This document shows positions 9,461 through 46,889 of a DNA stretch of 64,000 bases, piece after piece. A model generated the notes under the pieces. The model saw nothing but the letters and a program-made list of their open reading frames with translations, made no database searches and had not been told where the DNA came from. Numbering within the stretch: position 1 is the first letter of the stretch; the number at the start of each line of letters is the position of its first letter. The stretch comes from Spirosoma sp. Lineage in GTDB: Bacteria; Bacteroidota; Bacteroidia; Cytophagales; Spirosomataceae. Both the position numbers and the translations under genes were made by a program. The stretch covers positions 647,648 to 711,647 of the forward strand of contig NZ_JAPLET010000022.1 in NCBI RefSeq assembly GCF_026391055.1, read 5' to 3'.

Positions 9461-9546
9461 TAGATACAGAAACAGTGAATAATTTCAAACAACACCACTT
9501 AGACAATCACCTGATCATCAAACGCAAACTATTTGCCAGCCAAAAA

Positions 9547-10761: not shown

Positions 10762-10792
10762 AGGTGTTTGCGTACATTTCGGGGCACGGCAT

Positions 10793-10840
10793 AAAAAACG
10801 AGAAAGGCCCGATAATCTACCGGGCCTTTCTCGTTTTTTA
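10793..10840 (-). terminator. Rho-independent terminator after the M61 peptidase gene
   Basis: Perfect 13-bp stem CGAGAAAGGCCCG / CGGGCCTTTCTCG (10799-10811 / 10821-10833) flanked by an A-run and a T-run. Confidence 0.78.
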
Positions 10841-10888
10841 TGCGCTATCTACTGTCAACGCGTCGAACCGTCGACACTCCTCGTGTTA

Positions 10889-23492: not shown

Positions 23493-23556
23493 AGCTGAAA
23501 GCGTCCGTTTGGCGAGGTCGGTAGGGTTTTACAGATTGCCGTTGCCAGCAAACTCA

Positions 23557-23928
23557 TCATATCTTCGGCAGTATGTTCAACTCGTTGACTTTAGCGATCA
23601 GCTCGCGGGTAGAGAATGGTTTGGGGATATACAGGTTAGCACCCAGGTCAAGTCCTTTCTGTATATCCTTCTCCTTACTCTTTGCACTCAGAAAAATCAC
23701 TTTACAATGCTGGTAATCGGGTGATTGCTTAACAAAGCGGCATACTTCGTAGCCATCGACCCGCGCCATCATTACGTCAAGAATCAGTAGATCAGGCACT
23801 TCCTGGCGAATAATATCGAAAGCTTCGTCGCCATCACGGGCAATAAACACGCGGTATCCTTCTTTTTTCATCAGGAATTCCAGGGAGAGCAGAATACTCG
23901 GCTCGTCGTCAACAATCAGCACCTTCAT
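23557..23928 (-). CDS. Single-domain response regulator (receiver only, CheY-like)
   Basis: 123-aa ORF. 'VLIVDDEP', phospho-acceptor context 'LLILDVMM', 'FLSAK', 'IPKPF'. No output domain. Confidence 0.9.
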   Translation of the reverse strand: MKVLIVDDEPSILLSLEFLMKKEGYRVFIARDGDEAFDIIRQEVPDLLILDVMMARVDGYEVCRFVKQSPDYQHCKVIFLSAKSKEKDIQKGLDLGANLYIPKPFSTRELIAKVNELNILPKI

Positions 23929-24012
23929 AATGAGTTGAAATGATTTTGGCTAAAATAAGGAGTAAATGGCCTTTATCTTACCCTAATTTCCCGTTCCCAT
24001 CAAAACCAGTCT

Positions 24013-26733
24013 TTATTCACAGGTAGGCAGCGAACAGGTAAATTCAGCCCCTTCTCCGGGCACACTGTTAACCGTAATTTGCCCATAATGCAACGCAATG
24101 ATCTTTTTTGTAATTGCCAGACCCAGTCCGCTTCCCTTGGGCTTTCGTAGTGTCTGGTTATTTGCCTGATAAAATTTTTCAAAAATGAGTTGCTGTACGT
24201 CCGGCTCAATACCAACACCGTTATCGCGGACGGTCAGGTTAACTCGTTCATCACGGAGCGTCAAACAAACTGTAACATGACCGGTATCAGCCGGTGAGAA
24301 CTTGATAGCGTTGGAAAGCAGATTGATCAGCACCTGCATCAGTCGGTCGCGATCACCATCCACAAAAGGTTGTGCCTGTGTGGGGCAGATCTCCAGCGTT
24401 ACCTGTTTATCACGCGCTAACTGCGCCACATTCTCGACGGCCTCGGCCACTAAATCGACCATCGCAATTCGTTCAGTACTCAAGTGATATCGACCGGAAT
24501 CGTACCGCTCCAAATCAAGTACCTGGTTAATGAGCCGGGAAAGTCTCTCCGTTTCCCGAATAACCCGGCTCAGAAACTCCTGTCTCATGGACTCATCCAT
24601 GTCCGCCTGATCGTGCAGAATTTCCGACAACGCCCGAATCGACGTCAGGGGTGTTCTGATTTCGTGCGTAACGGTCGAGACAAAATCATCCTTCTGCTCA
24701 TCGGACTGTTTAAGCCGTTCGTTGGCCAGACTTAGCTGCTGGGTCATCTGCTGTAACTCGGCCGATTTGCGCGTCAGCTTCTTGTTAACCATCATCAATT
24801 CCTGCGAGGCCTTCAGAATATGAATCACCTCATCCACAGAAAGCGGCTCTTCGTTCGCCACCGACGACACCAGGATACGCGCTGAGGCCGTTCCAATAGC
24901 GCCCGCCAGCCATTTTTCGGCATACGCCACCAACCTTGGATCGGCGTAGGCACTGCCAGCCTCCAGCTGGTTGCGCTGAATATACCGATCAAGCGCCCGC
25001 TGGGTGGCTTCTTTCCCGAAAAAGGTATTCAGTAACGACCGCAAATCAGTGGTTAAGGCCTGCCCATTCCAGGGCGTCGTTTGCTCCGTAGTACGCGAAA
25101 AATGAAATACATCGACGAATAAATTGGCCTGCGACTGGTCGAGTGCCCGCTGTGACCAATTTAGCGACCCCCAGATGTACCCGCCAATGTTGAAAAACAT
25201 CGACCAGAACAACGCGTGTGCTATGGGGTCGAGCCCCGTAAGACCGAGCAATTCGTATGGTTTCAGAAAAGTCAGGCCTAATGGTCCTTCGCTAATAAAG
25301 GTGTCGGGCAGCAGGCCAGCCGTCACCAGCGAGGGAGCGATTAAGGTGTATACCCAAATCAGTGCGCCCATCAGCAGCCCAAGTTTGGCCCCATAGCGGG
25401 AACCCCGTTTCCAGAACAATCCACCAATCATGGCGGGCGTAAACTGGGCCACCGCAACGAATGAGATAACCCCAACCGACACCAGAGAGAAATGGTTGGC
25501 TACATAATGGTAGTACACATAGGCCAGCAACAATAAGCCCACGATGGTTACCCGCCGGATGGTAATTACCAGACCCCTTCGCGAAGGAGTTCCGGACGGT
25601 GGATCAAATCGGGCCAGCCAACCGGGTCGACTTACCAGTAAAGGCATCACCACGTTGTTGCTGATCATGACGCTCAGCGCAATCGTCTCAACGATGATCA
25701 TACTCGTTGCCGCCGAAAAGCCGCCAATATAGCCCAACAGAGCCAGGTTGGTTTGCCCATACTGTAGCGGCAGCGACAATACATAATTGTCGGCGTCGAC
25801 CAGCGGACCAAGCATCAGCTTACCGGCAAACATCAGCGGCAGTACGAACAGGTTTATCAGAAACAGATACAACGGAAAGAGCCACATAGCTTTGTTCAGG
25901 TGCTTTTCATCCACATTTTCGACAACGGCTACCTGAAATTGCCGGGGCAGAAACAGAACGGCCATCATGGATAAACAGGAATACCAGAACCAGTTGGTCG
26001 TGGAGGCCGATGAACTGAACGTAAACAGACGGGCCAGTGAAGGGGCAGCCGCAGCCCGCGTAAAAAGATCGGCTGGTCCGTTGAACAGAAAGAACGTGGC
26101 AAAGACCCCGATTGACAAAAAAGCGATCAGCTTAATCACCGACTCAAACGCAATGGCCGTTACCAATCCTTCGTGCCGCTCAGTAGCTTCCAGCTTCCGC
26201 GTACCAAACAAAATAGTGAATAACGCCAACACCAGACTGATTACCAGCGCCTGAGTACTTAGAAAAGAAGCCGACGTTCCGCTCACTGAATGGCCAGTCA
26301 TCACCGCAAAACTGGTCGTGACAGCTTTCAGCTGAATGGATATGTACGGTACGGCCCCCATTACGCAGAGTACGGTTGCCATTACGCCCAACAGTCGGCT
26401 TTTCCCGTACCGCGACGAGATAAAATCGGCAATACTGGTGATGCGCTGCGTTTTGCAAATCCGGATAATTTTACGCTGGATAGTCCACCACAGGGGTGCA
26501 CCAACCGTTGGGCCGATGTAAGCCGTCAGGTACTCGATACCCTCAGAAGCAGCCCGTCCAACACTCCCGTAAAATGTCCAGGCTGTACAATACACAGAAA
26601 TAGACAACGCATATAGGTACGGATTGTTGACCAAGCTCCTACCCGTTTGCGGGCGGTTTTCGGCCCAGTAGGCTACTCCGAACAACAAACACAGGTACAA
26701 CAAAGAGCAAACGACCAGAGCGAGACTATTCAT
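24013..26733 (-). CDS. Sodium:solute symporter (SLC5/SSS)-domain-fused sensor histidine kinase (CrbS/CbrA-like architecture)
   Basis: 906-aa ORF. About 13 TM helices in the first ~520 aa, then a helical linker and coiled coil. H-box 'STVTHEIRTPLTSI', N-box 'LLSNAIKFSP', 'DNGVGI', 'GSGLGLAI'. Confidence 0.9.
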   Translation of the reverse strand: MNSLALVVCSLLYLCLLFGVAYWAENRPQTGRSLVNNPYLYALSISVYCTAWTFYGSVGRAASEGIEYLTAYIGPTVGAPLWWTIQRKIIRICKTQRITSIADFISSRYGKSRLLGVMATVLCVMGAVPYISIQLKAVTTSFAVMTGHSVSGTSASFLSTQALVISLVLALFTILFGTRKLEATERHEGLVTAIAFESVIKLIAFLSIGVFATFFLFNGPADLFTRAAAAPSLARLFTFSSSASTTNWFWYSCLSMMAVLFLPRQFQVAVVENVDEKHLNKAMWLFPLYLFLINLFVLPLMFAGKLMLGPLVDADNYVLSLPLQYGQTNLALLGYIGGFSAATSMIIVETIALSVMISNNVVMPLLVSRPGWLARFDPPSGTPSRRGLVITIRRVTIVGLLLLAYVYYHYVANHFSLVSVGVISFVAVAQFTPAMIGGLFWKRGSRYGAKLGLLMGALIWVYTLIAPSLVTAGLLPDTFISEGPLGLTFLKPYELLGLTGLDPIAHALFWSMFFNIGGYIWGSLNWSQRALDQSQANLFVDVFHFSRTTEQTTPWNGQALTTDLRSLLNTFFGKEATQRALDRYIQRNQLEAGSAYADPRLVAYAEKWLAGAIGTASARILVSSVANEEPLSVDEVIHILKASQELMMVNKKLTRKSAELQQMTQQLSLANERLKQSDEQKDDFVSTVTHEIRTPLTSIRALSEILHDQADMDESMRQEFLSRVIRETERLSRLINQVLDLERYDSGRYHLSTERIAMVDLVAEAVENVAQLARDKQVTLEICPTQAQPFVDGDRDRLMQVLINLLSNAIKFSPADTGHVTVCLTLRDERVNLTVRDNGVGIEPDVQQLIFEKFYQANNQTLRKPKGSGLGLAITKKIIALHYGQITVNSVPGEGAEFTCSLPTCE

Positions 26734-27313: not shown

Positions 27314-28900
27314 TTAGTCGCGCTCGACGGCCTTGGCGCGGTTACTCAGGTAAAGCAGGCCAATCACAAAGGACACACTAGCCACAATAATCGGGTACCA
27401 GAGTCCTTCCAGATAGGCTTTGGAAACAACGGGAGCCGCACCGGCCGCAGCAGCAGTTTCATTCGCCTTCGTAGCGGTGGCCACCAACGCCGTAGCAATA
27501 AAGGGGACCAACCCACCAAAAACACCGTTGCCAATATGATAAGGCAACGACATGGAGGTGTAACGAATCCGGGTTGGAAACAACTCAACCAGAAAGGCGG
27601 CTATCGGGCCATATACCATCGTTACGTACAACACCTGAAGCAGCACCAGAAGAATCATTACCATTAAATCACCCGTCGACATCGTCACCGATTTAACCAC
27701 CTCGGGTTTAGACCTCTCCACTGACGCATCGGCCAGAACGGTCTGTTTCGACACTTCCTTGTAAGCGGTACCATCGGCGAAGGCTTTGGTCGTCGTAGTG
27801 GTAATCAGCGAATCGGCCGTATTCGCTATCAACGCTTTTTTAACGTCTACTTTCGTCTGTTCAGTCAATTCCTGTTTGGCCTTTAAATCCGTCAGGCTGT
27901 ACATCTTCTCGTAAATGGGCCGGTAGGTCAGAATGCCCAGCGCCATACCGGCCAGCATGATGCCTTTCCGACCAATTTTATCCGACAGACCACCAAATAT
28001 TACGAAGAAGGGTGTGGCAATCAGCAGGGCCACCGCCACGACAATATTGGATTGAACAAATTCGACATTACAGGCTTTCTGTATAAACGACAGGGCATAA
28101 AATTGACCTGTATACCAGATAACGCCTTGCCCCATGGTAGCCCCAAACAAGGCCAGTAAGACCATTTTCAGGTTTTCGCGCTTGCCGAAGCTCTCGGCCA
28201 GTGGGTTTTTGGATGTTTTCCCTTCTGATTTCAGCTTGGTAAATACCGGCGACTCCGACATTTTCAGGCGTATATAAATAGACACCCCTACCAATAATGC
28301 CGATAACACAAACGGTATCCGCCAGCCCCATTTGGCAAAATCCTCAACGCCCACCAGTTGTCGGGTAGCAACGATCACCCCCAGCGATACAAACAGACCC
28401 AGCGTTGCCGTTGTCTGTATAAAACTGGTGTAGTATCCCCGGCGGCCTTCGGGAGCATACTCGGCTACGTAAGTGGCCGCCCCCCCGTATTCGCCACCCA
28501 GTGCGAGACCCTGTATCAGGCGAAGCAGAAGCACGAGTAGCGGTGCCCAGAAGCCGATGGTTTCATAACCGGGAATCAGACCAATAAAAAACGTCGATCC
28601 GCCCATCAGCACCAGCGTGACCAGAAATGTATATTTCCGGCCAACCAGGTCGCCTAACCGGCCAAAAACCAGCGCTCCGAACGGACGCACGATGAAACCG
28701 GCAGCAAACGTCGCCAGCGTTGACAGCAGAGCGGCTGTTGGATTATCTTTCGGAAAAAACTGCGTTGACAGAATAGCGGCCAAGCTGCCAAAGATGTAAA
28801 AATCGTACCATTCAATGAGGGTTCCCAGCGAAGAGGCACCAATTACACTCAACAATGTTTTGGTACCGGCTACCGATTTGGGGGTTTGTTCTACTATCAT
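27314..28900 (-). CDS. MFS transporter, metabolite:H+ symporter (MHS) family
   Basis: 528-aa ORF. 'WYDFYIFG', MFS motif A 'GRLGDLVGRKYTF', 'LGGEYGGAATYVAEYAP'. Large central cytoplasmic loop. Confidence 0.9.
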   Translation of the reverse strand: MIVEQTPKSVAGTKTLLSVIGASSLGTLIEWYDFYIFGSLAAILSTQFFPKDNPTAALLSTLATFAAGFIVRPFGALVFGRLGDLVGRKYTFLVTLVLMGGSTFFIGLIPGYETIGFWAPLLVLLLRLIQGLALGGEYGGAATYVAEYAPEGRRGYYTSFIQTTATLGLFVSLGVIVATRQLVGVEDFAKWGWRIPFVLSALLVGVSIYIRLKMSESPVFTKLKSEGKTSKNPLAESFGKRENLKMVLLALFGATMGQGVIWYTGQFYALSFIQKACNVEFVQSNIVVAVALLIATPFFVIFGGLSDKIGRKGIMLAGMALGILTYRPIYEKMYSLTDLKAKQELTEQTKVDVKKALIANTADSLITTTTTKAFADGTAYKEVSKQTVLADASVERSKPEVVKSVTMSTGDLMVMILLVLLQVLYVTMVYGPIAAFLVELFPTRIRYTSMSLPYHIGNGVFGGLVPFIATALVATATKANETAAAAGAAPVVSKAYLEGLWYPIIVASVSFVIGLLYLSNRAKAVERD

Positions 28901-36024: not shown

Positions 36025-38523
36025 TTAGTATTCTGCCAGCAGCGACAACCACTTGCCAGCTGAGGTAACCCACACTTCTTTATAGGTGGCATTATTGATA
36101 GCTGGCCACCAGGGAATATCTTCATTATCTATTGTTCGTATGCCTACCGGGATTTCGCCTGTTATTTCTCCGGATGAAAAACTATTCATTTGCGGATACC
36201 TATTTCCCTCCCCATAAATCAACGATTGACCAAATGGGTTTTTACCCACCGTCCAGTATAACTGTTCGCGCCCTATTTGACGTAACACTTCATCATTTAA
36301 AAAATGCCCACAAATAGCAGCCGCCTTCCCGGTAGAAAGATGAACCGTTGTATTGCCATTGAAAATACCGAACCAAACGGGAAACCTTTTTAGATAATGC
36401 TGTTCATCCAGCTTTACCCCTTTTGTCACCTGTTCTTTGTATAACTCCTTTGCGTTAGCTGGCGGAAATAAATGCAGCGAGTAGAATGCCGACGAGTCAG
36501 ATGCTTCTTCTGTATGATACACGCCACTGGGTATCATTCCGTAAGGAGCCGTGTAAACCATAATGTCTTTTATATAATTGCCGTAAAGCTGCACGGCCAG
36601 ATACCACTTCTGATAATCGGGATGACTACGCTGGGTTTCGCACAAGAGAATAAGTGCCTGCATGTACACCTGGTCCCGGGACTGATGGACGAAATGCACG
36701 ATGGATGTTTGGGTCGTATCTCGGTAAAAAAAACCTTTACTACCCCTGGCATTGCCCAGCGGAGCTGTGCGTTGGCAGTTAAGTGTATAACGGATGAAAT
36801 CGGCCGCCGTTTGGGCATATTGCTGTTGACCGGTCAACTTATAAAGCATGCTGGCAGCCCAGGAAATAGTAGCCATATACTGGCTTTTCGACGTGTTATA
36901 GCTATGCTCATACAACTGCGAAAATCCGCCATACCCACTTTCTTTATACGTTTTCATCGCAAAAGAGAAGTCTTCCCGTGCTATTTTACCCAGGTATTCG
37001 CTAAAGGCAGGGTCCTTGTCAAGGGTCATGGCGGCATAAGCCTCGTAAGCGGCATACAGGAAATTGTCGAATGAGTTATTATGCACCCGCACCGAGTGAA
37101 TATCATCCAACGAGCCAATCAGGCCATCCTGCCAAATAAGCAATCCCATGCTGCTGGCCCGGTACCCATCGCCATAACGGTTCTTCAACACAAAATTAAG
37201 TCCCCATTCGGCCTCTTCCCGCAAGCGGGCTGCCAGTAGCGGATTTTTCGTCCGCTGCTTTTTATACGATTCCAGCAAGGCAAAACTAACATCTGCCGTT
37301 TGCAAGGTTTGCTGAGACAGGTCGCCCGCGTCATGCCAGCCACCGCTGTAAGAAATCTTTTTCCCATTGTGCTCAGAAAACAGATCAACATGACATTGCC
37401 CGTGCTTCTGAGGCACCGCATAGCCACACCGCTGACAGAAAATATAATTTAATACCCGCCATTGGGAAGACGTCCAGATACTTGGGTTAATCCCAAAGGA
37501 AGCGGTTTTCATCGTGCCGAAGACGATATGGTAGGTACCGGCTTTACTGAAATCACTGAAATCAAGTACCTCGTACTTACCCGTAGAAGTTTGCACCAGC
37601 TTCGGCTTTGCTTGATAAGCTACCTGCTGAGTCACTTCATTGATCAGTTGAAAAGAGGCATTGCTTAGAGCGATTGGCCGATTGGCAATAGCCGTTTTTT
37701 TCCCTTCGGTCATGTAGCCCGATGTCGAATAAACAATACTATTGGGGGCTGGCATCCACCCGTGGCTTATTTCCGGCGTTTGTATTTGTTTTAAAACGGG
37801 CTGATCAATGTAATAGATGACAGAGTCGCCGTTGGTTAGGTCTTTTCCTTTTAATGACACGTAAAAGGCAATTTCTGCCACTTTATCTCGACGAAGGTCC
37901 GATAGATCCAGGTAACAGCGGTTCCATTGATGGTTCGTCAAATTTAAAAGATGATCGGCCGAGTCCATAAGTGTTCCGGTTTTGGCTAATCCGGCTTGAT
38001 TACGAACGCTAATGTTGATATTCACGACCTGGGCACCTTCGGCGTCAGGATAAATGAAAAATTCGAGCCGGTTATAGGCTTCCCAATTTTGCCCGTTCAA
38101 ATTCAACTGCATACGGCAATTTCCGTAGGTGGCATAGTCCGGGTCAGTCTTTGAACCAACGGCCCTTTTTCCGGTAAATGTTGGGAAACTCAACCGCAAA
38201 GCTGGCTGTCCGGATTTTGTCTTTACATCAGCCATTGTCAGCTTTCCGTAACCAGTATGTTTCCAGTTACTGAAGATAGACGCTACTGTCAGGGGTTTCG
38301 AAAGTAGTACAGGCTTTTCCAGCGAAACGGCTTCGTAAGAACGGGAAAAATCCAGTGATAGCGGGCGATGAATCACCCCACTTTGGATAACCTCCTTGTA
38401 TAAGTTTATCTTGATACCATCTTTTTGGATTTGGGCGTAACTGGCGGAAATAGTACAGGCAACCAGAAACGTGCAGAGTAATCTTACCGTCATTAGTAAC
38501 ACTTCGTCGAGAATGTAATTCAA
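36025..38523 (-). CDS. Glycoside hydrolase family 9 with Ig-like (CelD_N-type) module and long N-terminal region
   Basis: 832-aa ORF (alternative start MTVRLLCTFLVAC at 38493). GH9 signature 'YSGGWHDAGD'. Ig-like 'YEVLDFSDFSKAGTYHIVFG...SFGI'. Confidence 0.85.
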   Translation of the reverse strand: MNYILDEVLLMTVRLLCTFLVACTISASYAQIQKDGIKINLYKEVIQSGVIHRPLSLDFSRSYEAVSLEKPVLLSKPLTVASIFSNWKHTGYGKLTMADVKTKSGQPALRLSFPTFTGKRAVGSKTDPDYATYGNCRMQLNLNGQNWEAYNRLEFFIYPDAEGAQVVNINISVRNQAGLAKTGTLMDSADHLLNLTNHQWNRCYLDLSDLRRDKVAEIAFYVSLKGKDLTNGDSVIYYIDQPVLKQIQTPEISHGWMPAPNSIVYSTSGYMTEGKKTAIANRPIALSNASFQLINEVTQQVAYQAKPKLVQTSTGKYEVLDFSDFSKAGTYHIVFGTMKTASFGINPSIWTSSQWRVLNYIFCQRCGYAVPQKHGQCHVDLFSEHNGKKISYSGGWHDAGDLSQQTLQTADVSFALLESYKKQRTKNPLLAARLREEAEWGLNFVLKNRYGDGYRASSMGLLIWQDGLIGSLDDIHSVRVHNNSFDNFLYAAYEAYAAMTLDKDPAFSEYLGKIAREDFSFAMKTYKESGYGGFSQLYEHSYNTSKSQYMATISWAASMLYKLTGQQQYAQTAADFIRYTLNCQRTAPLGNARGSKGFFYRDTTQTSIVHFVHQSRDQVYMQALILLCETQRSHPDYQKWYLAVQLYGNYIKDIMVYTAPYGMIPSGVYHTEEASDSSAFYSLHLFPPANAKELYKEQVTKGVKLDEQHYLKRFPVWFGIFNGNTTVHLSTGKAAAICGHFLNDEVLRQIGREQLYWTVGKNPFGQSLIYGEGNRYPQMNSFSSGEITGEIPVGIRTIDNEDIPWWPAINNATYKEVWVTSAGKWLSLLAEY

Positions 38524-38799
38524 AGGTATAAAATACCATCTATAGGCACCCTATGCCTATACCCTGAATGTCTTGCGATACGGATAGTCGTTGACAGAAA
38601 TTAAAATCAGGGTTACATAAGATATTGATGTTCTAATTTCTGTCAAACTACAATCAGTCACATACGCAACTAAACAAAACTGGAGCATACAACAGTTATC
38701 GTATAGCGTACCAAGAAAGAACGATAATTTTTAGCGAAATTTTAGAGTGTTTCTTTTTAATTTAAAATCGTATTTGTTCTACCTTACAAGTCAGTAATT

Positions 38800-39114
38800 A
38801 TGACAAGAGAAGAATTTTATGCTTCTGGATGGTCTCTAAACACAATAAATAAGGTGATTATCCACCTAAAAAATAATGCCGAACCTATATTTCCCGCTAG
38901 ATTGGTCTACCCAATTTTACGTGAGTCCCCATTGGAAACCGTTCATCAAGAGGGCGAAGATGAACTTCACCAAACACCCTCAGCGGTAATAGCACTTTCT
39001 CTCAACTTCGAGGTTTTAACTAAGGTCGAATCATCAACAGTAGATTATTCACCCCAATGGGTTCCAGGAAGTATCCCTTTAGAATCCGTAGAGTCGATCA
39101 ATCGCCTGACTTAA
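38800..39114 (+). CDS. Hypothetical protein
   Basis: 104-aa ORF in an AT-rich region. No motif recognised. Confidence 0.3.
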   Translation: MTREEFYASGWSLNTINKVIIHLKNNAEPIFPARLVYPILRESPLETVHQEGEDELHQTPSAVIALSLNFEVLTKVESSTVDYSPQWVPGSIPLESVESINRLT

Positions 39115-40033
39115 AACATAAAATTTAAAGAAGGCAGAGCGTCCGAATCCATAAGCGGGCATTCTGCCTGGGATTCATCTGTGTTTAAACCAGATAAGCA
39201 ACCCTAATTAGCGTTCATGAACATTAGTCCACTTCCTTTTGAGGTTACCGGCGCCAGATTGAGATAGCTGTAAGTGTTCAACTTTTTATGCCTTTTCTTT
39301 TTCTAGAATAGCATTTTTCGAGACGAGCAAGACACCCGTGTGACATAATCACTTCCTTCATGGGTATACATCCGTCGTTTGTTGACCTTATTGGTCAGGC
39401 AAACCCGATCTTTGGGTTTTATACTAAATGAAGCTAGGTGTTGCCTCACCAAAAGATCAAAGTTAAATGCCCTTACCATTCCCGGCTAACCCTAGCTACT
39501 TGTAGAAGCGCAGCTACGAAGCCGAAGTTACTTTTCCAATTCTACAGGCCGTCTAAAAATGTTAGCGGTAAGGCACGGTGTCCCACCAATATGTCTTAAA
39601 CTCCATGAGTAAAGCTTGCCAAGCCGTTGCTTCCATTATTTGACCAGATTGGACGTTATCCCCGCCAATAGCCCTCCGCAATATCGGGGTAAATATCCCC
39701 TGTCATGATAGCCTCAAATCTTGACATTCTATCGTGTAGAAGAGTCCCACTAAAAAATATTCGGGGCCAGAAATCGTATGCGACTGGTAAAATTGACAGT
39801 CATTAGAGTTGTTATCAATAATGTTTCTGCGTCTCACTAATGATGGTTTTTATAAAAGACTGATTTTTAAACATCTGTCAGACTCAATCAGTCGGATACT
39901 GGTGCAACACAACTAAGCAAAATGGTCAAACAATTATTGCATGGACACAATTTGTGACGTCTAGGTTAAATCTAGTTTTAAACTAGACAGATGATCCTTA
40001 TTTTTACTAAATTTTCCTCATTCAGTTTTACCA

Positions 40034-40897
40034 ATGGCCAATACGATAACCGAATTACTGAAAAAAAACAAGACCCAGCTTCTCGACAGATGGATTCACG
40101 TGCAGTTGACGAGTCAAACGCTTCGAGATGATCTAATGTCCGATGATGAGCTGCGGGCGCAATCTGAAGAACTGGTTAATGCCTTGGCAAAAGTGATCAC
40201 GGAGGAAAACAGTAATCAACCCGATTCGGCCGACTTCGATGAAGTTTTTGAAATTTTATCGACCATTTCCATGTCACGCGCCCGCCAGGGCTTTTCGCCC
40301 CGCGAAACTGGCACTTATATTAATAGTCTGCGGGAAGCTATCATAAACTTGCTTCAAGAGCAATTGTTGGAGTCGCCAGCTCAACTCTTTGCCGAAAGTC
40401 AGAAACTAACCCGGCTGCTGGACCATTTTAGCGTTATTACGTTCGAAACGTTTATTAAAGGCCGGGAGGAAGTGATTTTCAGGCAGACCGAGGAAATTAG
40501 TGATATCTCAACCCCAGTGATTCAAATATGGGACGGCATTCTGGCCTTGCCCATTATTGGCACGCTGGACAGTTCCCGAACCCAGGTCGTGATGGAAAAC
40601 CTCTTGCAAAAGATTGTCGATACTGGCAGCAGCATTGCTATTCTGGATATTTCCGGGGTGCCGGCGGTTGACTCATTGGTAGCCCAGCATCTAATCAAGA
40701 CCGTCAGTGCTACCCGACTCATGGGGGCCGACTGTATCATTAGTGGTATCCGTCCCGAAATTGCCCAAACCGTTGTTCATTTAGGTATCGATCTATCAAA
40801 CATCATTACAAAAGCATCGTTGGCCAGTGCACTCAAACATGCCTTTAGCTTGCAAAAGCTCGTAATTAAACGGTTGGAAGGAGATAAGATACGGTAA
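40034..40897 (+). CDS. rsbR: RsbR-type stressosome co-antagonist (RsbRD_N-like sensor domain + STAS)
   Basis: 287-aa ORF. N-terminal 'LLDRWIHVQL'. STAS 'ILDISGVPAVDSLVAQHLIK...GIRPEIAQTVVHLGIDL' is collinear with B. subtilis RsbRA. Confidence 0.9.
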   Translation: MANTITELLKKNKTQLLDRWIHVQLTSQTLRDDLMSDDELRAQSEELVNALAKVITEENSNQPDSADFDEVFEILSTISMSRARQGFSPRETGTYINSLREAIINLLQEQLLESPAQLFAESQKLTRLLDHFSVITFETFIKGREEVIFRQTEEISDISTPVIQIWDGILALPIIGTLDSSRTQVVMENLLQKIVDTGSSIAILDISGVPAVDSLVAQHLIKTVSATRLMGADCIISGIRPEIAQTVVHLGIDLSNIITKASLASALKHAFSLQKLVIKRLEGDKIR

Positions 40898-40912
40898 CTG
40901 CGTAAACATACA

Positions 40913-41311
40913 ATGGACAAAATACCCATCCTTCGAATGGGGACCTTCTTACTGGTCACTATTCAAGTTGATTTATACGATCGGCTAGCTTTAAATCTGG
41001 AAAGTGATTTGATCAATATGGTCCATAAAACGGGTGCTCGGGGCGTGCTGATTGATATTTCGGCTGTATCAATCGTGGATTCGTTTATGGGACGTATACT
41101 GGGCAATATTGCCTGTATGACCCGGGTGCTGGATGCTGAAACGGTCGTTGTCGGAATGCAACCGGCCGTAGCCATTACCCTCATCGAACTAGGTTTATCG
41201 TTGAATGGCGTCTATACAGCACTCGACGTGGAACGAGGCATTAGTTTATTGCAAACCAAGCTTGGTCCCAACGACGAACTGGCAGACGACGATGCTGACG
41301 ACACTGAGTAG
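40913..41311 (+). CDS. rsbS: RsbS-type STAS scaffold / antagonist
   Basis: 132-aa ORF. 'IPILRMGTFLLVTIQ...GVLIDISAVSIVDSFMGR...GMQPAVAITLIELGL' aligns along its full length with B. subtilis RsbS, including the phospho-Ser in 'VDSF'. Confidence 0.93.
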   Translation: MDKIPILRMGTFLLVTIQVDLYDRLALNLESDLINMVHKTGARGVLIDISAVSIVDSFMGRILGNIACMTRVLDAETVVVGMQPAVAITLIELGLSLNGVYTALDVERGISLLQTKLGPNDELADDDADDTE

Positions 41312-41705
41312 AGACAGGCTGACCATAACCCGGGAACAAGACGTAGTTCCGTGTCGGAACCGGGTTAAAGAAGCGGCCGTGAGAATTGGGATGGGGATCG
41401 TCAACCAAACCAAATTGATTACAGCAGCCAGCGAACTGATTCGGAACATGCTTCGGTACGCTGGTGGGGGCGAGCTTTTGATCGAAGTCGTTTGCAAGGG
41501 ACGCGAATCCGGCATACGACTTACGTTTACCGATCAGGGGCCGGGCATAGCTGATATTCAGCTGGCCATGCAGGATGGGTATTCGACCGGAAAAAGTTTG
41601 GGCTTAGGGTTACCTGGTACTAAACGTCTGGTTAATGAGTTTGATCTCGAAAGTATATTAGGCCAAGGAACAACAATCACTATACTAAAATGGAAAAATG
41701 GATAA
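41292..41705 (+). CDS. rsbT: RsbT-type GHKL serine kinase / switch protein
   Basis: 137 aa counted from MLTTLSRD; the ATG at 41292 overlaps rsbS by 20 nt. 'SELIRNMLRYAGGG', 'DQGPGIADI', 'GLGLPGTKRLVNEF'. Confidence 0.9.
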   Translation: MLTTLSRDRLTITREQDVVPCRNRVKEAAVRIGMGIVNQTKLITAASELIRNMLRYAGGGELLIEVVCKGRESGIRLTFTDQGPGIADIQLAMQDGYSTGKSLGLGLPGTKRLVNEFDLESILGQGTTITILKWKNG

Positions 41706-42738
41706 CTCCGCGCATACTCAATTTCGAGCCCCAGATCGGAGTTATTTGGCTCAACTAAAAAAAGGAGTTGGTCAAATGGCCATTAAGGCTGGCTTCCAAC
41801 CGCAGCGATTAGCAGAGATTGATATAATTGTTGCAGAAATGGCCACCAACCTGATTAAGCATGGTGGCGGTGGCGAACTACTGGTCCGCCACATTCAGAC
41901 CACTCCGCAGGCGGGTCTGGAGTTGATCAGCATTGACAGTGGCCCAGGGATGACCGACACTACCCGAGTGTTTCAGGATGGTATCTCGACGACCAATACA
42001 TTGGGCCAGGGCCTGGGCTCGATCAAACGCTTAGCAGATCAGGTGCAGCTGTTCTCCATAAAAGGTTGGGGTACCATTTTGCTGGCCCGCATTTTTCTTC
42101 ATCCACTACCCGATAACGCTTCTATTCGCCTGTCAGGTTTTGAATTCCGGTCGTTACTGGTTGCTAAACCCGGTGAAACCCTGTGTGGCGATGGAGTTTA
42201 TGTAAAAATAACGCCCACTCACCTTAAGCTTTTTTTGGGTGATGGGTTAGGCCACGGACCTGAAGCTTACTTAGCAGTACAGACCGCCGTAAATGCTTTC
42301 CGGCTTTGCCCGGATCATCGTCCCGTCGATATTTTGCGGCAAATGCACCGCTCGGTTACGAAAACCCGCGGTTTGGTTGGCTCGGTGGTTGTTTATGATG
42401 TGGCGAGTCAACAATGGAACTGGTGCGGAGTGGGTAATATCACGACTAGGATTAGTGGGCCTATGGCTACCAAAAACTTTCTATCCTACAATGGCATTAT
42501 TGGCATGAACCTGCCAGCAACCATGAATGATCATACCCTGCCCTTTGAGCGGGGGCAACTCCTAATTATGTGCTCGGACGGGCTCCAATCGCGTTGGGAT
42601 CCTACTAAATATCCACATATTCACCGCTACGATCTATCGATCCTAGCTGCGGCCTTATATAAAGATTATGCCCGACAAACTGATGATAGTTCCTTGTTTG
42701 TTGGGCGTTCACAGGGAGATCATGGAAGAATTAGTTAA
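41698..42738 (+). CDS. Fusion of an RsbT/RsbW-like GHKL kinase domain with a PP2C (SpoIIE/RsbX-like) phosphatase domain
   Basis: 346-aa ORF whose start overlaps rsbT by 8 nt. N-half: 'AEMATNLIKHGGGG', 'DSGPGMTD', 'GQGLGSIKRL'. C-half: 'GDGVYV', 'LGDGLGHGPEA', 'MCSDGL'. Confidence 0.85.
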   Translation: MDNSAHTQFRAPDRSYLAQLKKGVGQMAIKAGFQPQRLAEIDIIVAEMATNLIKHGGGGELLVRHIQTTPQAGLELISIDSGPGMTDTTRVFQDGISTTNTLGQGLGSIKRLADQVQLFSIKGWGTILLARIFLHPLPDNASIRLSGFEFRSLLVAKPGETLCGDGVYVKITPTHLKLFLGDGLGHGPEAYLAVQTAVNAFRLCPDHRPVDILRQMHRSVTKTRGLVGSVVVYDVASQQWNWCGVGNITTRISGPMATKNFLSYNGIIGMNLPATMNDHTLPFERGQLLIMCSDGLQSRWDPTKYPHIHRYDLSILAAALYKDYARQTDDSSLFVGRSQGDHGRIS

Positions 42739-44386
42739 AGGTACGCTTGACAATGAAATGGACCTGATTCTGGCCCATAAGCGGGCGATGAGACTGGCCG
42801 AGCTGGCGGGCTTGTCATTAGCGGCTCAAACTACGTTTGCGACGGCCATTTCTGAGGTGGCTCGCTATGCCATTGAACTAGGGACTGGACCCGTATTAAC
42901 ATTAGGTATTGACCGCTCCCAAGGGCATCCGTTCTTAGTCGCCCTCATTGAAGACCCTCATCTTCCAGTTGCTAACCCTCTGAATCAGGCACTTTTATAC
43001 GCCCAGCGGTTGGTCAGTAAGTTGGAAATAACCCATACTGGTAAAGGCGGAACAATTAGCTTATACCATAGCTTACCCATCGCTCGAAACATAAGTCAGC
43101 AGCAGGTAAACCGCTGGCGGTTATACTTCGAGGCTACTCAACCGCTCTCGGCCTATGATGAAATTAAGCGAAAAAATGAGCAACTGCAGGAATTAGCCCT
43201 GCGGCTCCAGGCCAGCGAACAACATTACCAACGGGTAACGGACTCACTGCCGCTTTTAATTTTTACCACTAATCAAGCGGGGCAGCTTCTGTACACCAAC
43301 ACCTGGCTAACCGAACTGACGGGTTATTCCATTCAAACCATTAATCAAGCTAGATGGGCTAATATCATCCACCCCGAGGACTATGATGAATTCTGGCGAC
43401 TTTGGACCAAACAAGCGTCTAGTTATCGGCCCTTTCAATACGAATGTCGCCTTAAAAAGGGTGGCCGTGAGCACTATATCTGGCATCTGATTACGGCCCA
43501 ACCGGTAAAAAGTGAGCCTGGTAAGGTAGCGGCCTGGAGCGGATTCGCCGTTGATATTCAGGCACAGAAACTGGCCGAACAGACCCTTCGACAAAATGAG
43601 GAACTAGTTCGGGCCAAAGCCAGTCTGGAGCAATCGCAACACGAATTAACGCTAACCATACGGGAATTAAACCGGAGCAATGAGGAGTTGAGCCAGTTCG
43701 CCTACATTGCCAGTCACGATCTGCAGGAACCCTTGCGTAAAATCCAGCAATTTGGTGACTTGCTTCAGGCACGAGAAACAAACTTATCATCAGATTCAGT
43801 GACCTATTTGAATCGCATGCAAGAGGCAGCCAGTCGAATGTCGATGCTAATTAAAGATTTGCTAAGTTTCTCCCGACTGTCCACGCGTCGGGAATCCATA
43901 AGGTCCTTATCTCTAACGAATCTGCTTCACGCTTGTCTAGACGATTTATCGCTACTGATTAGCGAAACGAATGCCCAAATCCATATTCAACCGCTACCTA
44001 CCATTGAAGGAGAAGCTACGCAGCTTGGTCAATTATTTCAAAATTTACTCAGCAATGCGCTCAAGTTTCGTCAAAAGGGAGTCATTCCCCAAATTTGGGT
44101 TAATTATCAGGCTATTCCGGCCACTCATCTACCCGCTTTCTGGAAGCCTGCCAGTGCCAACGGTATCTATCATAAAATAGAAATAGCTGATAATGGGATA
44201 GGCTTTAATGAAAAATACCTGGATCGGATTTTTCAGGTTTTTCAGCGTTTGCATGGAAAAAATGAATTTGCGGGTACTGGTGTCGGTCTGGCCATTTGCC
44301 AAAAAGTGGTAGCCAATCATGGTGGTATGATTACGGCGACTAGCCAACCAGGTAAAGGATCCACGTTTATCGTCTACTTGCCGTAA
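42722..44386 (+). CDS. Cytoplasmic sensor histidine kinase: degenerate RsbT-like N-domain, coiled coil, PAS, HisKA, HATPase
   Basis: 554 aa counted from MEELVKG; the ATG at 42722 overlaps the upstream gene by 17 nt. PAS 'LLYTNTWLTELTGY'. H-box 'ASHDLQEPLRKI', 'NLLSNALKF', 'DNGIGF', 'GTGVGLAI'. Confidence 0.9.
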   Translation: MEELVKGTLDNEMDLILAHKRAMRLAELAGLSLAAQTTFATAISEVARYAIELGTGPVLTLGIDRSQGHPFLVALIEDPHLPVANPLNQALLYAQRLVSKLEITHTGKGGTISLYHSLPIARNISQQQVNRWRLYFEATQPLSAYDEIKRKNEQLQELALRLQASEQHYQRVTDSLPLLIFTTNQAGQLLYTNTWLTELTGYSIQTINQARWANIIHPEDYDEFWRLWTKQASSYRPFQYECRLKKGGREHYIWHLITAQPVKSEPGKVAAWSGFAVDIQAQKLAEQTLRQNEELVRAKASLEQSQHELTLTIRELNRSNEELSQFAYIASHDLQEPLRKIQQFGDLLQARETNLSSDSVTYLNRMQEAASRMSMLIKDLLSFSRLSTRRESIRSLSLTNLLHACLDDLSLLISETNAQIHIQPLPTIEGEATQLGQLFQNLLSNALKFRQKGVIPQIWVNYQAIPATHLPAFWKPASANGIYHKIEIADNGIGFNEKYLDRIFQVFQRLHGKNEFAGTGVGLAICQKVVANHGGMITATSQPGKGSTFIVYLP

Positions 44387-44681
44387 TAAAACCAGTACGT
44401 ATGCTAAGTAAACTAGTTGACAGGTAGTAAAACAAGCCGTCCAATTAAACGCCCCATTTATGAAGCAGTTGAAAAGAGAGCGCTTATAGCTCTTTAAGTA
44501 ACCACAGAAGTATCTTTATATGCCTTGTCAATCTATGAAGCTGAATTGAAAAATGGGATTCGAAGGTCCGCGCATAAACGGGGTCTTTCGGGTAATGCAA
44601 CCTATTTACACCGGTGTAGCTAAGTCAAATATTTCGCGTCAGGAGCGTTTTGTGGCATATTAATTATTTACTTATCTTCTA

Positions 44682-45272
44682 CTAGGATTTAAAGAGTACT
44701 CGGATAATTAGGCCCTTACGTTCATTCATCAACTCCTTAAACGCTGATTCTGAAAGGCCAAAGAACTGACCATAAAGCGGGGCCATGATCAGGGGATAAG
44801 AGAGAAGCGAAAACAGATTCATAAGAAAATGAATCGGGTTCATCGGCTCCAGGGTTCCATTCACCATCTCCTGTTCTATTTCGGCCATAAACGACTTGAC
44901 AGGGTCTATCTGTATATGCTCGATCAGTTGATGCCCTACGGTATTGAGCTGAGTAACCATAAAGGTTTCCTGGTAGGGGTAAGTGCCCATGTCGATTAGA
45001 AAAACCTCGATCAGTTCCTGGATTTTCTCCCGGAACGGTTGGGGCGATTTCATGGCGGTGGCCAACCGTTGGCTTAGCGCCTGCATGGCTTCCTGAAAAA
45101 CCGTGTCAATTAACTGGTCTCGCGACCGGAAGTAGTAATGCAGGGCCGCCCGGTTAACACCTGCCGCATCGGCTATATCCTGCGTGGTGGCATGTAGTCT
45201 GCCTTCGGCAAATAGAATCCGCTTCGCCGTTTCTTTAATCAGTTGTTCAGTTCCAGTGTCTTTTGATGGCAT
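44682..45272 (-). CDS. TetR/AcrR-family transcriptional regulator
   Basis: 196-aa ORF. HTH 'ATTQDIADAAGVNRAALHYYFRSRDQL'. Confidence 0.9.
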   Translation of the reverse strand: MPSKDTGTEQLIKETAKRILFAEGRLHATTQDIADAAGVNRAALHYYFRSRDQLIDTVFQEAMQALSQRLATAMKSPQPFREKIQELIEVFLIDMGTYPYQETFMVTQLNTVGHQLIEHIQIDPVKSFMAEIEQEMVNGTLEPMNPIHFLMNLFSLLSYPLIMAPLYGQFFGLSESAFKELMNERKGLIIRVLFKS

Positions 45273-45299
45273 GTGCGTAAGGGTAAACCATTCATTTAT

Positions 45300-46889
45300 T
45301 CAGGCGACGCGAATCCGGCTGTCAATCCCTACTTGCTGGATAAAATAGGAATCGTGCGAGATCACCAGTAATGTACCGTTGAAATTCTTCACGGATGCTG
45401 TAAACACATCTAGGCTTTGTCCATCAAGGTTATTAGTCGGTTCATCCAATATCAGCATATCGGGTGTGTGATTGCTGACCGATAGACAGCATAAAGCCAG
45501 CTTCATTTTTTCACCCCCACTTAATCCACTACATTTCCGGTCGAACAAATCTCGCCCGAACTTTGAATAAATAAGCAATGATTTTACCTCGTGTTCAGGT
45601 AAGTGGCGGCTATTAAAGTGCTCCACTTGTTCATAAACCGTTCGGTTGGGATCGATCAGGGTATAGTCCTGGTCAAGATACAGGTAAGTGAACGAAGCTC
45701 GCTGAATTGTGCCCTGTACTGGCTCCAGCTTACCAGTTAGAAGGCGCAACAGGGTTGTTTTACCTGCCCCATTATCGCCCTCAATTCGGATACGGTCGCC
45801 CGAGCGGATCTGAAATGTCAGCGGCTTCCACAAGGGAGTGTTGCCGTACCCAAAACTAAGTTGCTCGGCATCGATCAGCATCTTTCCGCGGTGGAGGGTA
45901 GAAGCGCCAATATCGATTTTCAGTACGTGATAGGACTGAATCTGCGACCGAATCTGCCGGATATTTTCAGCGATTCCAGCTACTTTTTCACTATGAGTGT
46001 TTAACAGGTTAGCGGTGCTTTGCTCAGCTTTACTTTTCCGTCCACCGGCAATGATGCGCGGCAGCGATTGGCTCTGGCCGACTACCCTGCCGTTGGCTTC
46101 CTTTTTTTGACGCTGTTCGACCATATCCCGCGCTTTTTGCTGACTTTGTTTCAAGGTTTTAGACTGCTCATCCAGTTGGGCTTGCAAAGCCCCAACCTGG
46201 CCATTTTTCTGTTCGCGGTAAAAATCAAAATTCCCACCGAATACGGTTAGGCCACGCTCACTAAGTTCTAGGGTTGTCGTCAATAAATTGAGCAACGTGC
46301 GGTCATGACTGACAACCAGCAACGTTGCTGTACTCGACTTGATAACCTCATATAATTGCTCCCGGCTACCCACATCCAAATGATTGGATGGTTCGTCGAG
46401 TAAGATGATCCCCGGCTTGTGAAGGGATATGCCTGCCAGAAATACCTTCGTTTTTTGCCCACCACTCAGTTCGTCTAACCGCTGATCAACCGTTATGTGC
46501 GCCAAATCCCAGTTCGAAAGGGCAGTAGACACAGCCTCTTCGATCTCCCAGTCATCGGCCAGGTCCGTAAAAAACTGTGGGTCAGTTTCGCCGGACAGGA
46601 TAGCCCGGATACTGCGCAGCTTTTGGTCAACGCCCAGCACCTGGGCAACCGTCAAGCTGTCGTATTGGCCCAGGTGCTGGGGTACAAACCAGGGCTTTTC
46701 GGTCGCCATGATTTGACCCGCTGATGGAAGCAATTTTCCGGCAAGGAGCTGCAAAAGAGTTGATTTCCCTGTTCCGTTGTTGCCTACCAGCGCGGCTTTC
46801 TCACCGGAGTTTAGGGTAAGGTTTAACCCCTCAAACAGCAACGTCTTATCGGGATGTCTATAGGTTAGCAACCTGGTCGTCAAACTCAT
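45300..46889 (-). CDS. ABC-F family ATPase (two ABC domains, no TMD)
   Basis: 529-aa ORF. Walker A 'GNNGTGKST' and 'GDNGAGKTT'; signatures 'LSGGQKTK' and 'LSGGEKMK'. Charged inter-domain linker of about 90 aa. Confidence 0.92.
   Translation of the reverse strand: MSLTTRLLTYRHPDKTLLFEGLNLTLNSGEKAALVGNNGTGKSTLLQLLAGKLLPSAGQIMATEKPWFVPQHLGQYDSLTVAQVLGVDQKLRSIRAILSGETDPQFFTDLADDWEIEEAVSTALSNWDLAHITVDQRLDELSGGQKTKVFLAGISLHKPGIILLDEPSNHLDVGSREQLYEVIKSSTATLLVVSHDRTLLNLLTTTLELSERGLTVFGGNFDFYREQKNGQVGALQAQLDEQSKTLKQSQQKARDMVEQRQKKEANGRVVGQSQSLPRIIAGGRKSKAEQSTANLLNTHSEKVAGIAENIRQIRSQIQSYHVLKIDIGASTLHRGKMLIDAEQLSFGYGNTPLWKPLTFQIRSGDRIRIEGDNGAGKTTLLRLLTGKLEPVQGTIQRASFTYLYLDQDYTLIDPNRTVYEQVEHFNSRHLPEHEVKSLLIYSKFGRDLFDRKCSGLSGGEKMKLALCCLSVSNHTPDMLILDEPTNNLDGQSLDVFTASVKNFNGTLLVISHDSYFIQQVGIDSRIRVA

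Follow-up and report, generated by a model that had tools for sequence, protein, structure and literature searches.

A Spirosoma rsbRSTX-type stressosome operon that encodes a histidine kinase with a predicted RsbT-derived pseudokinase domain

The rsbRSTX-type module and its conservation

The DNA considered here, referred to as the window, is a stretch of 64,000 nucleotides (nt) of a Spirosoma sp. contig (NZ_JAPLET010000022.1, positions 647,648 to 711,647; assembly GCF_026391055.1), which encodes a stressosome-type operon of five genes at 40034-44386. The operon comprises rsbR (40034..40897), rsbS (40913..41311), rsbT (41292..41705), a gene encoding a GHKL–PP2C fusion protein (gene 4, 41698..42738), and a histidine kinase gene (gene 5, 42722-44386), all on the + strand. 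The open reading frames (ORFs) and their translations agree with the arrangement described in the original prediction, in which a 15-nt gap between rsbR and rsbS is followed by overlaps of 20, 8, and 17 nt between the successive genes. A genome scan with one genome per species returned 183 relatives, and the best 80 loci were compared. The start of rsbT is the ATG at 41292, which is internal to a longer ORF opening at 41205 and gives a protein of 137 aa; RsbT matches in the loci of 79 relatives cover 85% or more of the protein encoded from this ATG, and most of them begin at residue 1, as judged by coordinates. The kinase gene likewise starts at an internal ATG (42722, in an ORF opening at 42668), and its homologues start at the same methionine.

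RsbR consists of an N-terminal RsbRD_N sensor domain (aa 5-108, nt 40046-40357; Pfam 3e-25) and a C-terminal STAS domain (aa 161-263, nt 40514-40822; Pfam 3e-14). Searching PDB sequences with phmmer aligns the protein over its full length with Listeria RsbR (7b0u, 3e-32) and, with 43% identity over 157 aa, with V. vulnificus RsbR (7o0i, 9e-36). Both phospho-acceptor positions of RsbR are occupied by serine: Ser180 (LDSS) aligns with Listeria Thr175, the equivalent of RsbRA Thr171, and Ser214 (AVDSL) aligns with Listeria Thr209, the equivalent of RsbRA Thr205, which corrects an earlier placement of Ser214 at the Thr171 position. RsbS is a single STAS domain by Pfam, matches the B. subtilis and Listeria RsbS structures (6jhk, 7e-33; 6qcm, 1e-32) with 47% identity over 116 ungapped residues, and carries its putative phospho-acceptor, Ser57, in a VDSF motif, as had been proposed along with its full-length homology. 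RsbT is recognized by Pfam as HATPase_c (2e-12) and HATPase_c_2 (1e-7), and the N, G1, and G2 boxes are intact, again as originally described; residues E48 and N52 and the motifs D81xG83xG85 and G104xG106xxG109 are each invariant in 80/80 sequences. By these alignments, the first three proteins are assigned as true homologues of RsbR, RsbS, and RsbT, and the hallmarks of an RSTX module are all present: an RsbR with sensor and STAS domains, an RsbS with a serine in DSF, and a small GHKL protein, RsbT, encoded directly after rsbS.

Gene 4 encodes an N-terminal RsbT-like GHKL domain (aa 1-133, nt 41698-42096; Pfam HATPase_c_2) fused to an RsbX-type PP2C domain (aa 148-338, nt 42139-42711; Pfam SpoIIE). 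The GHKL half shares 34% identity with RsbT (BLASTP 3e-19; hhalign probability 99.5%), keeps its catalytic residues in 80/80 sequences, and is best regarded as an RsbT paralogue. The closest PDB sequence matches of the PP2C half, which contains the GVGN motif that serves as the signature of the RsbX-type “GN group II” PP2Cs (PMC4524716), are to MtX of Moorella (3zt9, 5e-19) and B. subtilis RsbX (3w40, 5e-10). The AlphaFold2 (AF2) model of the fusion protein (predicted local distance difference test (pLDDT) 84.5; predicted TM-score (pTM) 0.85) is matched by Foldseek to 3zt9, 3w40, and SpoIIAB, with target TM-scores (TMt) of 0.91, 0.83, and 0.77. Judged by sequence and predicted structure, gene 4 encodes an RsbX-type (GN group II) feedback phosphatase with an added N-terminal GHKL domain, and is not a part of the output wiring, as had been supposed. 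Since the PP2C half is of the RsbX type, genes 1-4 correspond to the known rsbRSTX module. The fusion protein in the window is 92% identical to its counterpart in Spirosoma pulveris and has more than 1,600 homologues at E<=1e-10, many of which are named “ATP-binding SpoIIE family protein phosphatase”.

Nearly all of the best 80 loci come from Cytophagales or Chitinophagales, and those from Cytophagales belong to Spirosoma, Larkinella, Rudanella, Siphonobacter, Fibrisoma, Xanthocytophaga, and one metagenome-assembled genome (MAG) of Flammeovirgaceae. The five genes are colinear on one strand, in the order R–S–T–fusion–kinase, in 72 of the 73 loci that hold all segments, so that the gene order expected to be conserved in Cytophagales is conserved there and in Chitinophagales too. 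The spacing in these 73 loci is equally uniform, with a median of -20 nt between rsbS and rsbT, -8 nt between rsbT and the fusion gene in 62 loci, and a median of -16 nt between the fusion and kinase genes, where the distance is 30 nt or less in 71 loci and an overlap of 14-20 nt is conserved. The five genes are one conserved operon, and not a chance neighbourhood. An RsbU/RsbV/RsbW/sigB cascade is not encoded with the module in the window, and none is conserved in the 80 related loci. Pfam and hidden Markov models (HMMs) of the operon proteins detect neither RsbV, RsbW, or sigma-B genes nor a response regulator adjacent to the operon, as the original prediction had stated. Within the 64-kb window there is no STAS, RsbW-like, or sigma gene elsewhere, and the HMMs of the operon RsbS (STAS) and RsbT detect no further copies.

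Large interruptions of the operon occur in just two of the 80 loci, namely as insertions of 1-1.7 kb between rsbR and rsbS in Flavisolibacter ginsengisoli (locus L034, 2542-3573) and Sediminibacterium roseum (locus L060, 3828-5583). Two further loci (L023 and L063) lie on contigs that bear the label of a Williamsia (Actinomycetota) MAG in one case and of a Moraxellaceae MAG in the other; both carry a typical Chitinophagales-like operon with fusion proteins 52-54% identical to that of the window, and the labels probably reflect binning errors rather than horizontal transfer.

The N-terminal domain of the histidine kinase

Gene 5 encodes a soluble PAS histidine kinase. The PAS domain (aa 167-283, nt 43220..43570) is matched by Pfam PAS_3 (5e-8), PAS_9, PAS_4, and PAS (aa 167-279), and the transmitter, which extends up to the stop codon (43688..44386), contains HisKA (aa 323-387; 1.6e-10) and HATPase_c (aa 431-554; 9e-23) domains. 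The translation includes the H-box SHDLQEPLR, the N-box NLLSNALKF, and the G1 (DNGIGF) and G2 (GTGVGL) motifs, and the protein possesses both the H-box histidine and the catalytic HATPase_c domain, with its N, G1, and G2 motifs, of a HisKA-type kinase. With these domains, every family named in the original prediction (RsbRD_N, STAS, HATPase_c, SpoIIE, PAS, and HisKA) has been found by HMM searches of the operon.

The first 160 residues of the kinase, which were overlooked in the original prediction, have no Pfam match at E<=10. No RsbU_N four-helix bundle is detected on the kinase, either by Pfam at this threshold over residues 1-160 or in the predicted fold, which is an alpha/beta GHKL fold. 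Other sequence searches with the N-domain were similarly uninformative: NCBIfam gives just a faint match to the RsbA anti-sigma model (E 0.011), pairwise BLASTP against RsbT and the fusion GHKL domain is non-significant (E 2.3 and 0.99), and a profile search of PDB sequences returns nothing relevant. The relationship of the N-domain (aa 1-118, nt 42722..43075) to RsbT surfaced just through structure prediction with Foldseek and family-versus-family comparison with hhalign. An AF2 model built on 33 homologues (pLDDT 88.7) has its best Foldseek match in RsbW (6m36; TMt 0.88, root-mean-square deviation 2.1 Å, probability 1.00), and further matches include UsfX (8ih8), SpoIIAB (1th8), both with probability 1.00, and the RsbW domain of Rv1364c; the best PDB structural matches are all STAS-binding GHKL serine kinases. 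In hhalign, the N-domain family aligns with the operon RsbT family over 108 columns (probability 97.6%, E 3e-12), and much more weakly with the fusion GHKL domain (39.7%).

The alignment with RsbT contains a 13-residue gap in which the G1 box and the ATP lid of the N-domain are deleted. The position of the N-box asparagine is variable among 76 orthologues (N30/Y12/T11/S9/H6) and is occupied by Tyr49 in the window, and the G2 motif is degenerate, so that the N-box Asn, the G1 DxGxG, and the G2 GxGxxG motifs expected of an ATP-binding domain are not kept. Because these motifs are missing or degenerate, the N-domain is considered to be a pseudokinase and not an active GHKL kinase. Several residues of helix 2 are, however, invariant or nearly so: Q36 and R48 are each conserved in 75/76 orthologues, and T37, A40, T41, S44, and E45 in 76/76. 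The median identity of the N-domain is 47%, versus 41% for the PAS and transmitter part of the kinase. Family comparison and the predicted fold identify residues 1-118 as an RsbT-derived pseudokinase of the Bergerat/GHKL fold, and the conservation pattern is that of a pseudokinase apparently kept for binding rather than catalysis. The N-domain is joined to the PAS domain by a two-helix linker (aa 126-159, nt 43097..43198; helices 126-138 and 144-159 in the AF2 model), in which the motif SxYEE(L/I)KRKNEQL is conserved among the homologues.

In Spirosoma telluris, whose genome is the nearest sequenced one among those from the genome scan, the kinase gene is split between two frames (locus L001, 7359-9019): the N-domain is in frame 0 and the remainder in frame 2, and the N-terminal piece carries the annotation of a 128-aa hypothetical protein (P0001). 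The split reflects a frameshifted pseudogene or else an error in sequencing.

The N-domain belongs to a wider family. Its profile matches 840 cluster representatives at E<=1e-3 and 173 of them at 1e-10 or better, and among the 150 best matches listed the domain lies at or near the N-terminus. Among the members sampled are kinases with no PAS domain, kinases with several, and hybrid kinases that have REC and Hpt domains. In sampled distant members, the N-domain is recognized by Pfam as HATPase_c_2, its N, G1, and G2 motifs are intact, and HisKA and HATPase_c domains follow; metagenomes and a cyanobacterial MAG are among the sources of relatives with an intact domain. The next matches of a profile of these intact domains are free proteins named “serine/threonine-protein kinase RsbT”. 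The family, which is missed by current Pfam and NCBIfam models, offers a natural series from active kinase domain to pseudokinase. The contigs of the distant members likewise bear stressosome genes: RsbS–RsbT–fusion–kinase in locus L082, RsbR–RsbS–RsbT–fusion–kinase in L085, where the kinase has a PAS domain, and kinase–RsbR–RsbS in L081, whose contig ends after RsbS, while L086 holds a fragmented copy with further two-component genes behind it. L082, L085, and L086 retain a gene for a separate RsbT, although the kinase N-domain is intact in these loci, and this persistence rules out the N-domain as a substitute for RsbT.

The metagenomic locus L086 was inspected further (8779-11730). Its RsbT-domain kinase is followed by a HATPase_c-plus-receiver product, a REC–HisKA–HATPase_c kinase, and a stand-alone receiver; the first of these may belong, as a fragment, to the same frame-shifted hybrid kinase. 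The assembly is broken by frameshifts. The layout suggests multi-step phosphorelays as outputs in some lineages.

Signal output and its possible mechanisms

The histidine kinase is very probably the output of the module, because the five-gene order is so strongly conserved. Output through a PAS histidine kinase had been proposed from the outset, and this part of the proposal stands; the protein is, however, not a plain PAS kinase, since it carries the RsbT-derived pseudokinase domain. In 48 loci, the next gene on the kinase strand, which lies a median of 31 nt downstream, encodes only a Response_reg domain, and these loci comprise Chitinophagales and the Flammeovirgaceae MAG. An adjacent receiver is absent in the Spirosoma, Larkinella, Rudanella, Siphonobacter, and Fibrisoma loci, where the kinase gene is followed, as in the window, by a convergent TetR gene. 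The earlier description of the kinase as an orphan is thus valid for Spirosomataceae, but not for the loci with a receiver gene behind the kinase, which are nearly all from Chitinophagales. The stand-alone receiver is the first candidate output for a Bacteroidota stressosome. The sole receiver in the 64-kb window is encoded at 23557-23928 on the - strand; it was rejected as the missing partner of the kinase, since it lies directly downstream of its own 906-aa membrane kinase and scores like any receiver.

A stressosome with a two-component output is as such a known category, and such systems were reportedly catalogued by Pane-Farre in 2005. The rsbRSTX module is widespread, Bacteroidetes included, two-component and phosphorelay outputs have been catalogued, and the RSTX-D1-D2 locus of V. 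vulnificus has been studied experimentally (Heinz et al. 2022, PMC9237108). The original claim that this wiring has no characterised example was consequently overstated. No Bacteroidota system has been studied experimentally; literature searches for Bacteroidota stressosome work returned nothing specific, and the literature searched makes no mention of an RsbT-derived input domain on a kinase or of an arrangement with three RsbT paralogues.

The V. vulnificus locus (PDB 7o0i) is similar to that of Spirosoma in its R–S–T–X gene order without a sigma-B cascade, in the PAS-containing two-component protein without RsbU_N that is encoded directly downstream, and in the STAS domain and preceding helix of RsbR, which are 43% identical. 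In contrast to Spirosoma, the Vibrio RsbR sensor is a haem globin and not RsbRD_N, its RsbX is a single-domain PP2C and not a fusion with an RsbT-like GHKL domain, and its output includes a GGDEF protein, where the relatives of the Spirosoma locus encode a stand-alone receiver. With the B. subtilis and Listeria stressosomes, the Spirosoma module shares full-length homology of RsbR, RsbS, and RsbT, an RsbX-type PP2C, and the phospho-acceptor positions (the RsbS serine, and serines at both RsbR threonine positions). It differs from them in that RsbU, RsbV, RsbW, and sigma-B are absent from the locus, the phosphatase is encoded directly after RsbT and is fused to a GHKL domain, and the effector, a histidine kinase, receives its input through an RsbT-fold domain in place of the RsbU_N four-helix bundle. 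Histidine kinases of proteobacteria and the MtG diguanylate cyclase of Moorella thermoacetica are examples of non-sigma outputs coupled through RsbU_N (Baral et al. 2025, PMC12143880; Quin 2012). In these systems, as in Spirosoma, a helical linker and an N-terminal input domain connect the stressosome module with a signalling enzyme that is a dimer, and Moorella also possesses the phosphatase, MtX, to which that of Spirosoma is most similar; the Spirosoma input domain is, however, of the alpha/beta GHKL type, closest to RsbW/SpoIIAB, and has no Pfam match.

RsbW, SpoIIAB, and UsfX (HATPase_c_2) share the fold of the kinase N-domain, with TMt up to 0.88, and bind STAS partners. Unlike these proteins, the N-domain lacks the G1 box and ATP lid, does not conserve the N-box asparagine, and is fused to PAS–HisKA–HATPase_c, with no sigma factor involved. 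M. tuberculosis Rv1364c (PAS–PP2C–RsbW–STAS; PDB 3ke6), which is among the structural matches of both AF2 models (kinase N-domain and fusion), resembles gene 4 in combining a PP2C and an RsbW-like GHKL domain in one polypeptide. It differs in the reversed domain order (PP2C, then kinase), in a phosphatase that is RsbU-like and not RsbX-like, and in the lack of a stressosome context.

In known stressosomes, RsbT is held by the unphosphorylated STAS domains of RsbR and RsbS, phosphorylates them, and is released, whereupon it activates RsbU_N-bearing effectors through a helical linker, while RsbX resets the core (PMC9237108; PMC12143880). How stressosomes outside Bacillales reach effectors that lack RsbU_N is stated as an unresolved question in the literature: an interaction between VvRsbT and VvD1 was not detected, and the coupling of outputs without RsbU_N was left open (Heinz et al. 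2022, PMC9237108). As RsbU_N is also absent here, another coupling route is needed, and the operon family of Cytophagales and Chitinophagales gives a testable answer, namely that the effector carries an RsbT-like domain of its own.

We tentatively propose, with confidence a little short of even, that the operon encodes an rsbRSTX-type stressosome module with a dedicated two-component output, in which the kinase is docked on the STAS core by its pseudo-RsbT domain. RsbR and RsbS would form the STAS core, which in the stressosome class is a pseudo-icosahedral assembly of about 1.8 MDa that sequesters RsbT, and free RsbT would be the catalytic serine kinase that targets RsbS Ser57 and RsbR Ser180/Ser214. 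The RsbX-type phosphatase would reset the core, tethered to its substrate via its own intact RsbT-like ATP-binding domain. The pseudo-RsbT domain, which is predicted to no longer bind ATP but retains an invariant helix surface, would dock the kinase on unphosphorylated STAS domains in the manner of sequestered RsbT. Upon stress, phosphorylation of the core by free RsbT may release or re-orient the kinase, and the change would reach the HisKA dimer by way of the helical linker and the PAS domain, leading to phosphotransfer to a stand-alone receiver, whose gene lies directly downstream in most Chitinophagales loci and is presumably located elsewhere in Spirosoma. RsbT itself and the RsbT-like domains of the phosphatase and the kinase are three paralogues, which would consequently be in competition for one scaffold. 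The loss of catalytic motifs in the N-domain would be tolerable because RsbT supplies catalysis in trans, which fits the retention of RsbT in all loci. The domain identities, the pseudokinase status, the conserved gene order, and the receiver in relatives are shown by the data, and the formation of the complex, the docking step, and the direction of regulation are inferred.

Several points weigh against this proposal. What points to STAS docking is homology, and the ATP lid contributes to STAS binding in SpoIIAB-type complexes; as the lid region is deleted in the kinase N-domain, STAS binding might be lost or changed. We know of no demonstration of an icosahedral stressosome for a Bacteroidota RsbR/RsbS pair, and no receiver gene adjoins the kinase in the window. 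With all of its catalytic residues in place, the fusion GHKL domain may act as a second kinase and not as a tether. Furthermore, because GHKL anti-sigma kinases dimerise, the N-domain could instead pair with free RsbT. This pairing is the main alternative, somewhat unlikely but a serious contender: RsbT released by stress would form a GHKL heterodimer with the pseudo-RsbT domain, like the RsbW/SpoIIAB homodimers, and activate the kinase via the helical linker, as RsbT does with RsbU_N. Such a heterodimer is consistent with the separate catalytic RsbT kept in every locus examined, with the specifically RsbT-like character of the N-domain, and with helices of the pattern QT..TA.SE..R that are conserved in both the RsbT and N-domain families, as a symmetric interface would require; in the case of RsbU, moreover, control of dimeric effectors by RsbT through a linker is established (PMC12143880). 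The known RsbT receptor is, however, the RsbU_N four-helix bundle, which is absent here, the literature searched gave no evidence of RsbT dimerisation, and the lack of an RsbT–D1 interaction in Vibrio (PMC9237108) also argues against pairing, to an extent that depends on whether D1 carries an RsbT-like N-domain.

It is improbable that the N-domain is just a transient docking site at which RsbT or the fusion kinase domain phosphorylates the histidine kinase on Ser/Thr. Phosphorylation of this kind has been proposed for Vibrio D1 and for outputs without RsbU_N (Heinz et al. 2022, PMC9237108), and RsbT-dependent phosphorylation of the Moorella diguanylate cyclase is reported by Quin et al. 2012, cited in PMC4976288; the substrates of RsbT-type kinases are, however, STAS domains, which the histidine kinase lacks, and the retention of a whole RsbT-fold domain with an invariant helix surface would be left unexplained. 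There is a similarly slim chance that RsbR and RsbS act as soluble antagonists like RsbV/SpoIIAA and titrate the three GHKL domains in a small partner-switching module with no megadalton scaffold. Partner-switching logic would work with dimers, and complex formation here is a prediction, but the alignment of RsbR with Listeria RsbR extends over the full length, its match to V. vulnificus RsbR noted above takes in the STAS domain and the helix in front of it, RsbS is 47% identical to B. subtilis RsbS, and these homologues form icosahedral cores in solved structures. That the histidine kinase is a mere neighbour, functionally uncoupled from the stressosome genes, is strongly disfavoured and highly improbable, given the colinearity of 72/73 loci across two orders, the conserved overlap of 14-20 nt with the phosphatase gene, the RsbT-derived N-domain, and the distant relatives of other architectures that still adjoin RsbR/RsbS.

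Docking of the kinase through its pseudo-RsbT domain may also have a more general counterpart. It is conceivable, though on balance doubtful, that stressosomes without RsbU signal not by released RsbT but via effectors with RsbT-derived docking domains, in Spirosoma the pseudokinase of the histidine kinase and the intact copy on the RsbX phosphatase. The effectors would themselves be sequestered on and released from the STAS scaffold, with the three RsbT paralogues in competition for its sites. If so, a widespread signalling hub would have a second, unrecognised output mechanism, whose hallmark is an unannotated domain family comprising several hundred sequence clusters and which could account for the coupling left unresolved in Vibrio-type systems.

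Surroundings of the operon

The operon is flanked by genes for GH9, TetR, ABC-F ATPase, HxlR, NmrA, SDR, and AraC proteins, and the gene following the kinase gene is a convergent TetR gene. A 104-aa ORF without a Pfam match lies between the GH9 gene and the operon (38800-39114, + strand). It is followed by approximately 920 nt upstream of rsbR (39115-40033) that contain no ORF of at least 60 aa and no Rfam match; Rfam detects no RNA family in 38000-45500 as a whole. The region upstream of rsbR has a low GC content (0.41 for 38001-40000), and no upstream gene is conserved in the relatives. A sigma-70 promoter scan gave 12 sites versus 11.5 expected, with a model that is ill-suited to Bacteroidota promoters.

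Farther upstream, an unrelated two-component unit occupies 21576-26733 on the - strand and consists of the gene for the 906-aa membrane kinase (24013-26733), the receiver gene at 23557-23928, and an acetyl-CoA-synthetase-like gene (21576-23492). The kinase has a long multi-span hydrophobic N-terminal region, and Pfam calls just its HisKA and HATPase_c domains; an MFS transporter is encoded nearby at 27314-28900. The layout of this unit presumably resembles that of the acetate-switch systems of the CrbS/CbrA type. In front of the stressosome operon itself, the motif TAAATTTT precedes the rsbR ATG by approximately 20 nt and is a possible -7 element of the Bacteroidota type.

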